A program made the position numbers and the translations under genes. 64,000 bases of DNA from Leucoraja ocellata (Eukaryota). A model generated the notes under the pieces. It was not told where the DNA came from, did no database searches, and worked only from the letters and a program-made list of their open reading frames with translations. Shown one piece after another: positions 3,354-60,975 of the stretch. Location of the stretch: positions 2,852,001 to 2,916,000 of the forward strand of contig JAWMAR010000044.1 in the NCBI GenBank assembly GCA_036785375.1. The letters are read 5' to 3'. Positions within the stretch are counted from its first letter, which is position 1; every line of letters starts with the position of its first letter.

Positions 3354-3494
3354 TCTTCTTCTTGCGTATGGCGTGCACAGCCTAAAGATGCAGGCCAACT
3401 TGTTCTATTTGATCTTATTTGATTGTGCACGCTGGGTTGATTGCATTGGTCAATAATCAGGGCGGACCACGTGAAGGTTGCAATCTCCCACCCC
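3354..3494 (-). mobile_element. Short non-autonomous element with 5' HDV-like ribozyme and Vingi-like (AAG)n tail
   Basis: TSD acctagtacac (3342-3352) / acctagcacac (3495-3505). 3' end reads ccatacgcaagaagaaga. Internal 9-bp inverted repeat at 3371-3379 / 3424-3432. Confidence 0.8.
3439..3494 (-). ncRNA. HDV-like (CPEB3-type) self-cleaving ribozyme with minimal P4
   Basis: GGGGTGG-GA-GATTGCA-ACC-TTCACGT-GGT-CCGCCCT-GATTATTGA-CCAA-TGCAATC gives a 7-bp P1 with G1.U wobble, a 7-bp P2, a 3-bp P3, a 7-nt L3 and a C-N-A-A J4/2. Confidence 0.8.
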
Positions 3495-60177: not shown

Positions 60178-60262
60178 GGCACAAAGGCTGGAGTAACTCA
60201 GCGGGTCAGGCAGCATCTCTGGAGAACATGGATAGCTGACATTTCAGGCATGGACCCTTCAA
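60178..60262 (-). mobile_element. Penelope-derived unit, truncated
   Basis: gctggagtaactcagcgggtcaggcagcatctctggag. Confidence 0.75.
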
Positions 60263-60410
60263 GCCATTATACTCTCACTGATTTCTCCATTAACACTGGT
60301 TGACCCAAAATGAGCAATGGAAGTTCTTGCACATTTTAGGGCCACATCACTTCCCAAAATTCTTTACAACTCATAATGCGTAGATACTGCAGCGATAATG
60401 CAAACCTAGT

Positions 60411-60561
60411 TCGTTCGCACGTGCGTCAGACGACGTATTGCGCGCTGTTGGCTTCTGTCGTTGTCCAACATGTTGATAGAATTGGTCAACCGACACGTCA
60501 CAGAGTTCATCGTGTGGTCGTTTCCGGGGATCGCCACGAGGAGGCTTCTGTCATGATCCCC
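60411..60561 (-). mobile_element. 151-bp CpG-rich non-autonomous retroelement with 5' HDV-like ribozyme
   Basis: Perfect 13-bp TSD atgcaaacctagt at 60398-60410 / 60562-60574; 3' stem-loop and a (GAAC)-like end. Confidence 0.85.
60500..60561 (-). ncRNA. HDV-like ribozyme fold (catalytic C apparently mutated to T)
   Basis: GGGGATC-ATG-ACAGAA-GCC-TCCTCGT-GGC-GATCCCC-GG-AAACGACCACACGA-TGAA-CTCTGT. Confidence 0.75.
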
Positions 60562-60578
60562 ATGCAAACCTAGTAGTT

Positions 60579-60975
60579 ACAATACAATACAATACAATAC
60601 GGTTTTATTCGTCACATTGCACATAAAGTGCAAGTGAACTGAATTTGTCAGCAGCGGTACAATGATAAAGAACACACAAACTCAATAACATTTTAACACA
60701 AACATCCACCGCAGCAATCATCACTGTGGTGGAAGGCGCAAAAATTGACCAGTCCTCCTCCATTTCCCCCCGTGGTTGGGACCTCAACCCTCCGCAGCCA
60801 TCGCTGTCGGCGTCCAAATGGTAAAAGGACAAGGTAAAAGTCAAGGGAAGTCCAGAATCGGCTCTTCCCCACCAGAGACCGCGGCTTCAGGCCGGTGTAG
60901 GCCGCAGGCCAGAGGTCGAAGATTTAAAGTTCCCGCCGCGCCGCGGCCAGAAGCACCGCAGACCGCAGGGCCGAC
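60579..60975 (-). mobile_element. 5'-truncated copy of the GC-rich Rex1-tailed element
   Basis: Highly similar to 29320-29640; (CAATA)n tail. Confidence 0.75.

Follow-up and report, generated by a model that had tools for sequence, protein, structure and literature searches.

The locus considered here raises the question of what a short insert between exact repeats is, and what copied it into place. The window, that is, the whole 64,000-nt stretch of Leucoraja ocellata DNA that was analysed, contains a 151-bp island that the original prediction described as one copy of a multi-copy mini-retroelement family headed by a ribozyme like that of hepatitis delta virus (HDV). The island is CpG-rich, as had been described, with 16 CpGs and a CpG observed/expected ratio of 1.40 compared with 0.39 in the window. 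The proposed 13-bp target-site duplication (TSD) is an exact direct repeat (60398-60410 and 60562-60574) with no further extension. A 13-bp repeat is by itself not rare, as four such pairs occur in the window at 60–600 bp spacing, and the first 2 bases of the 60398..60410 copy, read along the minus strand, are also compatible with the GAAC repeat of the insert's tail. A very high-copy repeat lies just past the 3' flank (window 60183-60250), and directly next to the other TSD copy is a TACAA microsatellite (window 60575-60600). In the following, the insert is called the focal copy and the repeat family to which it belongs is called the mini-element; the outer features are listed below.

60411..60561, minus strand: focal copy, a whole 151-bp bipartite non-autonomous LINE copy
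60562..60574, no strand: 13-bp TSD copy 5' of the focal copy
60398..60410, no strand: 13-bp TSD copy 3' of the focal copy

A DNA search of the organism's own genome (3.44 Gb) returned 1508 first-look candidates, of which 40 were scored and were 88–91% identical to the focal copy. Exact-pattern searches located a 3' 26-mer at 18 places and a 5' 27-mer at 82 places. Three of the 15 mini-element places from the 3' set were also in the 5' set, an overlap from which our own arithmetic, which is biased low, gives a family of about 400 places. The family thus comprises roughly several hundred to about 1,500 places, with assembly duplicates counted. When 78 loci were pooled, 19 proved to be repeats of another locus, leaving 59 distinct loci, 53 of them full length. 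An 8–14-bp TSD flanks 40 of these 53 copies, and 46 begin at the element's first base, G1, with at most one mismatch. The insert is therefore a member of a dispersed repeat with hundreds of copies and their own TSDs, as had been predicted. Because the copies were selected on similarity or on exact motifs, conservation within those motifs is overestimated; positions 60509, 60507, 60477 and 60485, discussed below for the fold, lie outside them. At least half of the sampled words of the mini-element family were present in eight organisms (16 runs). An empty-site search of four runs gave no joint across the focal copy among the matches listed, and one contig of run X1 spans its 3' junction.

Immediately 5' of G1, 34 of the 53 copies have T and one has G, against 29% T and 20% G in the flank (p about 1e-7 and 1e-4). 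T is also dominant before copies of a second family in the window, represented by the element at 3354-3494. This could reflect a preference in second-strand nicking that would also leave a base suited to cleavage at -1; a literature search on a -1 nucleotide preference found nothing.

The source of the mini-element emerged from the 3' motif, as two of its 18 matches (one duplicated locus) are the end of a coding LINE fragment. Walking upstream from this fragment led to full-length copies of about 3.0 kb that start with the mini-element's first 122 bases. Bases 1-122 of the focal copy are 83–85% identical to four LINE loci representing two independent insertions, and bases 1-57 are 93% identical to a third. 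The 3' part of the mini-element is the extreme 3' end of the LINE, shared from base 126 (10 of the 16 LINE ends tried could be parsed), and the two ends meet at element position 125 in 2–3 nt of microhomology. An autonomous LINE sharing both ends, which the original prediction had proposed to look for, is thus found in the same genome, in copies that are all frameshifted among those seen; no partner LINE is among the open reading frames of the window. Because both of its parts are ends of one LINE, the mini-element is a bipartite non-autonomous LINE of the SIDE/NARTc type. It is multi-copy with its own TSDs, and has neither coding capacity nor a Pol III head. The focal copy divides as follows.

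60438..60561, minus strand: LINE 5'-end part (element 1-124), with the ribozyme and the first 11 codons
60438..60471, minus strand: likely start codon of the LINE ORF (60471-60469), with the codons that follow it
60411..60436, minus strand: LINE 3'-end part (element 126-151), with the last codons, the stop codon at 60428-60426 (element 134-136), a short 3' UTR and a GAAC-repeat tail

The ATG, which lies four bases past P2, is a likely start codon, since its frame reads into an APE motif in two of five LINE copies; private indels are present in the remaining three. The 10-mer reported to recur in the insert was found again at 60459-60450, where it sits in these first LINE codons, and the GAAC-like tail noted earlier is the end of the 3' part. 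The stem-loop described near the 3' end does fold in the focal copy, at -11.2 kcal/mol; it is not a family feature, as 3 of the 9 pairs are lost in the majority sequence and the median of the other copies is -5.3. Other deletion forms of the same LINE were also encountered: a longer bipartite join (L226:1451-1640, plus strand), a short variant that lies within another repeat (L061), and a nearly complete copy that lacks 179 nt after base 57 and with them the 3' half of the ribozyme (L075/L110).

The LINE protein has a single ORF with an RVT_1 match and weak APE matches, and neither an RNase H after the reverse transcriptase (RT) nor a DUF6451 was found (Pfam, E<=0.1). It is collinear to the C-terminus with six homologues that lack RNase H, and PF00075 is absent from the 240 listed homologues. 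These are mostly APE-RT proteins of about 900–1050 amino acids at 46–55% identity, including a 22-member Anolis cluster. In an RT tree built with no named Vingi and no Ingi/RTE outgroup, the LINE groups with an Anolis multi-copy protein (P0115, 46–48%) and with echinoderm and insect proteins. A C-terminal CCHC zinc finger is a trait of the Vingi clade, and the LINE protein carries one (C-x-C-G...H-x3-C). Some elements called Ingi in 2011 were later renamed Vingi. A review characterises Vingi elements as compact, single-ORF, APE-type LINEs without RNase H (PMC13708176; here as elsewhere, what we say of published work relates to the accessible parts of each paper). The partner LINE has both a compact single ORF with APE and RT and no RNase H, and it likely belongs to the Vingi clade, an assignment made from architecture and unnamed homologues with no named Vingi reference in the comparison.

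The original prediction had named an RTE-type LINE as the probable mobiliser. The partner RT is 51–53% identical to those of sister Vingi-type families in the genome and only 23–28% identical to that of a DUF6451-bearing family, which we take to be RTE-type. The latter (L031-L050) is abundant, with 1150 candidates, an AAG tail and copies 81–94% alike. It was rejected as a partner because of its AAG tail and because its ends do not match the element; this search scored 150 of the 1150 candidates, fetched 20 loci and concerned one family. We found no support for horizontal transfer of the partner LINE, whose best homologue, at 55–56% identity, lies on a long branch of unsettled position.

The remaining question about the insert is whether its head is a ribozyme. 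The elements of the fold, in the register that the family supports, are given below.

60555..60561, minus strand: P1 5' strand; 60561 is G1, the element's 5' end and the predicted cleavage site
60526..60532, minus strand: P1 3' strand; 322/333 cells paired, with covariation
60546..60552, minus strand: P2 5' strand (element 10-16)
60533..60545, minus strand: P3 (60545-60543 with 60535-60533) and L3 (60542-60536)
C60541/C60540 with G60524/G60525, minus strand: P1.1, formed by L3
60486..60523, minus strand: P4 hairpin of 38 nt, including T60509; -10.8 kcal/mol in the focal copy, -9.4 in the majority
60482..60485, minus strand: J4/2 CCAA, in which C60485, intact in the focal copy, is predicted to be catalytic (HDV C75 equivalent)
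60475..60481, minus strand: P2 3' strand (element 81-87)

The 7-bp P1 from base 1, P3, the HDV-type L3 and the GG available for P1.1 are present as originally described, and together with P2 they make an HDV-like nested double pseudoknot with a 3-bp P3 and a 7-nt L3. The P2 proposed earlier, a 5-bp helix closing at 60504-60500, is rejected because with it there is neither a P4 nor a catalytic C. The family P2 has 7 bp (element 10-16 with 81-87; 352/362 cells paired) and closes at 60481-60475 with CCAA directly before it, and a paired P4, which had been named as a point to check in the consensus, is present in this register. In HDV-like ribozymes, the P2 3' strand is immediately preceded by C-N-A-A, the C being catalytic. 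The Rfam consensus likewise shows C-N-A-A there, and the focal copy matches it with C60485 (element 77), which is C in 46 of 52 other copies. In an alignment of nine heads from four families (the mini-element family, two sister LINE families and the 3354-3494 element), C77, A79 and A80 do not vary, both partners are exchanged in 12 of 19 core pairs and 91% of cells are paired, with none of 500 shuffles reaching the observed pairing and slid controls at 31–49%; these figures are tempered by the small set of nine sequences in four related groups, from which the structure itself was drawn. All core pairs, C77 and A80 are kept together in only 15 of 52 copies. On this structural evidence, the mini-element head is predicted to be a self-cleaving HDV-like RNA.

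Rfam gives no match at gathering level in the 64-kb window, and the focal copy is below the cut-offs of RF00622, RF00094 and RF02682 (27.9/35, 22.6/50 and 23.3/44 bits). Across the mini-element family, RF00622 scores are 24.9–32.9 bits (32.9 for the LINE head) against the cut-off of 35. This CPEB3 model aligns the focal copy in the register proposed earlier, whereas the two remaining HDV models place it in that of the family. The z-scores of non-nested folding (-1.57 and -0.01) do not stand out. The family is separate from the 3354-3494 element, as had been stated: their only match is of 18 nt, at the J4/2-P2 junction. That element, also on the minus strand, represents a family with 1655 first-look candidates, a minimal P4-less HDV-like head and an AAG tail, and its parent is not among the 82 LINE-search loci compared. 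The repeated 10-mer was also considered as an attenuator pairing with the P2 3' strand. It is complementary in 347/360 cells, but the pairing has a probability of 0.00–0.03 in the majority and the focal copy, and base 107 is A in LINE copies; the complementarity was treated as chance.

The original prediction had also read J4/2 as TGAA and taken the T at 60509 for a catalytic C lost by CpG deamination after insertion. There is indeed a T at this position, but it is the family state: among 52 other copies, 49 have T, two have A and none has C, the LINE parent has T at the equivalent position, and in four runs from four organisms no alternative letter is listed at >=10%. Deamination at 60509 is thereby refuted. 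TGAA itself is private to the focal copy, as 48 of the 52 others have C at 60507. Another private change, G to A at 60477 (G in 51 of the 52 others), creates a C.A mismatch in P2, the duplex having -1.4 kcal/mol in the focal copy against -7.6. In four runs from four organisms, the family letter makes up 94–99% of the depth at both 60507 and 60477. With P1 masked, native P2 has a probability of 0.94–0.96 at all lengths in the family majority, compared with 0.78, 0.02, 0.11 and 0.40 at 90, 112, 125 and 151 nt in the focal copy, in which the 5-bp helix reaches 0.43–0.89 with downstream sequence. Downstream sequence likewise shifts the predicted fold off native P2 in LINE copy L100. The fold originally proposed may thus be a plausible misfold of the focal copy with U at the catalytic place. 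The P2 mismatch, rather than loss of the catalytic C, likely makes the focal copy a weak or misfolded ribozyme, and by itself this copy is an unexceptional, decayed representative of a family of this kind.

Nor does its age fit the earlier description as young. The focal copy carries 11 changes and lies 9.3% from the majority, with only 7 of 23 comparison copies more diverged, and the family is in eight organisms. Outside the selecting motif, these 23 copies diverge from the majority by 8.1% (6.0% at non-CpG and 15.1% at CpG sites), and LINE copies are 84–92% alike over long matches, versus 93–97% within sister families A and B. By copy divergence and these identities, the mini-element family is moderately old and older than the two sister families. 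The CpG richness is, judging from the 18 CpGs in the majority, inherited from the element.

Taken together, the mini-element is very probably an internally deleted, non-coding copy of a likely Vingi LINE of about 3.0 kb, made of its first 124 and last ~26 bases; its HDV-like head is predicted to release it by cleavage from read-through transcripts of the host, and the LINE protein would copy it in trans. The ends it has in common with the LINE, joined at microhomology, would have been brought together by a template switch or by deletion of one LINE copy. A host promoter would drive co-transcription, self-cleavage 5' of G1 via C60485 would give the precise 5' end, and the APE-RT protein would then recognise the 3' UTR/GAAC tail, nick the target and prime reverse transcription. 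The full-length insertions with TSDs are the visible end of this path. Release from a host co-transcript and subsequent target-primed reverse transcription is a model taken from L1Tc/NARTc and R2 SIDEs (PMC3185411, PMC4035085, PMC3414825, PMC6765202), both of which cleave in vitro (PMC3185411, PMC3414825). The same bipartite element might instead owe its precise 5' end to an internal promoter (cf. Pr77 of L1Tc), the ribozyme fold being a passenger that is vestigial in the mini-element. The first 77 nt of L1Tc are promoter and ribozyme both (PMC3185411, PMC4035085), a 151-nt RNA is readily copied to its end whatever made that end, and the predicted fold moves off native P2 with downstream sequence in the focal copy and in L100. 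However, the paired covariation of P1, P2, P3 and P1.1 across four families, with the invariant C77, A79 and A80, argues for selection on catalysis, and the family majority retains native P2 at every length; we judge a passenger fold to be improbable.

Two further readings fare worse. A short-P4 ribozyme with the 5-bp P2, a catalytic C deaminated at 60509 and an RTE LINE as mobiliser, as first proposed, can draw on the register of the Rfam CPEB3 model and on the probability of the 5-bp helix in the focal copy, but the absence of C at 60509 from all 52 copies and from the LINE parent, together with the AAG tail, unmatched ends and distant RT of the RTE-type family, makes it very hard to sustain. 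That the mini-element is a Pol III SINE with a small-RNA head and a merely borrowed LINE tail would suit its size, its copy number and the 3' tail in common with the LINE. From base 1, however, its 5' part is the LINE's own 5' end, which leaves no room for a tRNA, 5S or 7SL head and excludes this origin for practical purposes.

With the deleted LINE copy as the preferred reading, its head can be compared with those of related LINEs. A protein search of the genome found further Vingi-type families, one of which has a 1020–1031-aa frame, and an HDV-like fold sits at the exact 5' end of families A and B alike. The family A head scores 56.2 bits on the Rfam mammalian CPEB3 model (RF00622, cut-off 35), and heads of family A loci (L111:3353-3437, minus strand; L173-L197) score 56–65 bits. 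Of 59 matches scored in a genome search with this model, 56 are above the cut-off, the highest at 64.7 bits, and 15 of 25 fetched loci have an APE-like frame downstream; the same search of 14 control genomes gave none above the cut-off. The family B head (L113:3287-3385, minus strand; L123) has an A-U first pair, a CCAA junction and a 2–3-nt insertion in P2/J4-2, and matches no Rfam model at E<=0.5. A further head family (L178, L183, L187, L189, L190 and L207) is also CPEB3-like, at about 51–60 bits, and Vingi-type APE or RT fragments follow the head in four of these loci. The closest resemblance to CPEB3 is in an old family of 11 places.

L192:1501-1571, minus strand; L198-L206, L208: old low-copy CPEB3-like family

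By our own count, this family matches 55 of 62 CPEB3 consensus positions, including J1/2 and P4, which are not fixed by catalysis, and 8 of 10 further loci are above the CPEB3 cut-off. At L204/L205, one duplicated locus, a Vingi-type C-terminal fragment follows the head (profile E 4e-5 and 0.009 among 96 frames), and these look like another bipartite element; tblastn linked no LINE to the old low-copy family. Heads in this genome form a graded series from the mini-element family (33 bits) through family A (56–65 bits) to the old low-copy family (55/62). Because sister Vingi-type heads are above the CPEB3 cut-off and one family matches even in P4, sequence comparison suggests that the CPEB3 ribozyme derives from a Vingi 5' end by domestication. 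The accessible text of Bendixsen et al. 2021 (PMC8233481) states that this ribozyme is 'not found outside of mammals' and that an outgroup is missing, and human DNA contains a Vingi relic (PMC5753468). Combined, we find it reasonably probable that HDV-like ribozymes are the standard Vingi 5' end, that the mini-element, with its ribozyme and 26-nt tail, is a natural 151-nt minimal template for a Vingi protein and that a domesticated Vingi 5' end gave rise to the CPEB3 'memory' ribozyme of mammals. The accessible parts of the literature consulted (including PMC7761336, PMC8256844, PMC10274809, PMC8233481, PMC4494074, PMC5753468 and PMC3391268) mention neither an HDV-like ribozyme on Vingi nor a derivation of CPEB3 from it; Vingi ribozymes may already be described in Ruminski 2011, Kojima 2011, Webb 2009 or Webb & Luptak 2011, in supplements, in Repbase or in patents.

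Among known systems, NARTc/RIME (L1Tc/ingi, L1TcRz) are alike in being non-autonomous, in having the ends of an Ingi-group LINE with an HDV-like ribozyme from base 1, and in their dispersed insertion with a TSD of about 12 bp (PMC3185411, PMC4035085). The mini-element differs from them in its animal genome, its 151-bp length, a parent without RNase H, a GAAC-repeat tail in place of poly(A), a long P4 and the retention of a likely start codon and 11 codons. R2 SIDEs also join a 5' HDV-like ribozyme to a LINE 3' end, move in trans and have no Pol III head, but they are RLE-type and specific to an rDNA site, whereas the mini-element is APE-type and dispersed (Eickbush & Eickbush 2012, PMC3414825). 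Internal-deletion derivatives of Vingi-1_EE and bipartite RTE elements are likewise bipartite derivatives of compact single-ORF APE-RT LINEs, as cited in PMC5786205 and PMC4494074, and several deletion forms coexist (here L226, L061 and L075/L110). The mammalian CPEB3 ribozyme (RF00622) shares the fold and, in sequence, the P2 core and much of P1/P3; the mini-element differs in scoring below the cut-off of 35 and in its 2-bp P1.1, G-C first pair and 38-nt P4, and it is mobile, whereas the CPEB3 ribozyme is a single intronic copy.

With the mini-element, the range of short ribozyme-headed elements made by internal deletion, which took in Ingi of trypanosomes and R2 of insects, now reaches a Vingi-type LINE in a large animal genome. 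The family also indicates that 124 + 26 nt of cis sequence suffice for hundreds of precise insertions. Vingi proteins serve as RNA-only gene writers, in which template ends and truncation matter (PMC13708176). While the family is instructive, most of the interest comes from the connection between a Vingi ribozyme and CPEB3: the sister heads would supply the outgroup described as missing for the CPEB3 ribozyme in the accessible text of Bendixsen et al. 2021 (PMC8233481), so that its origin becomes testable.
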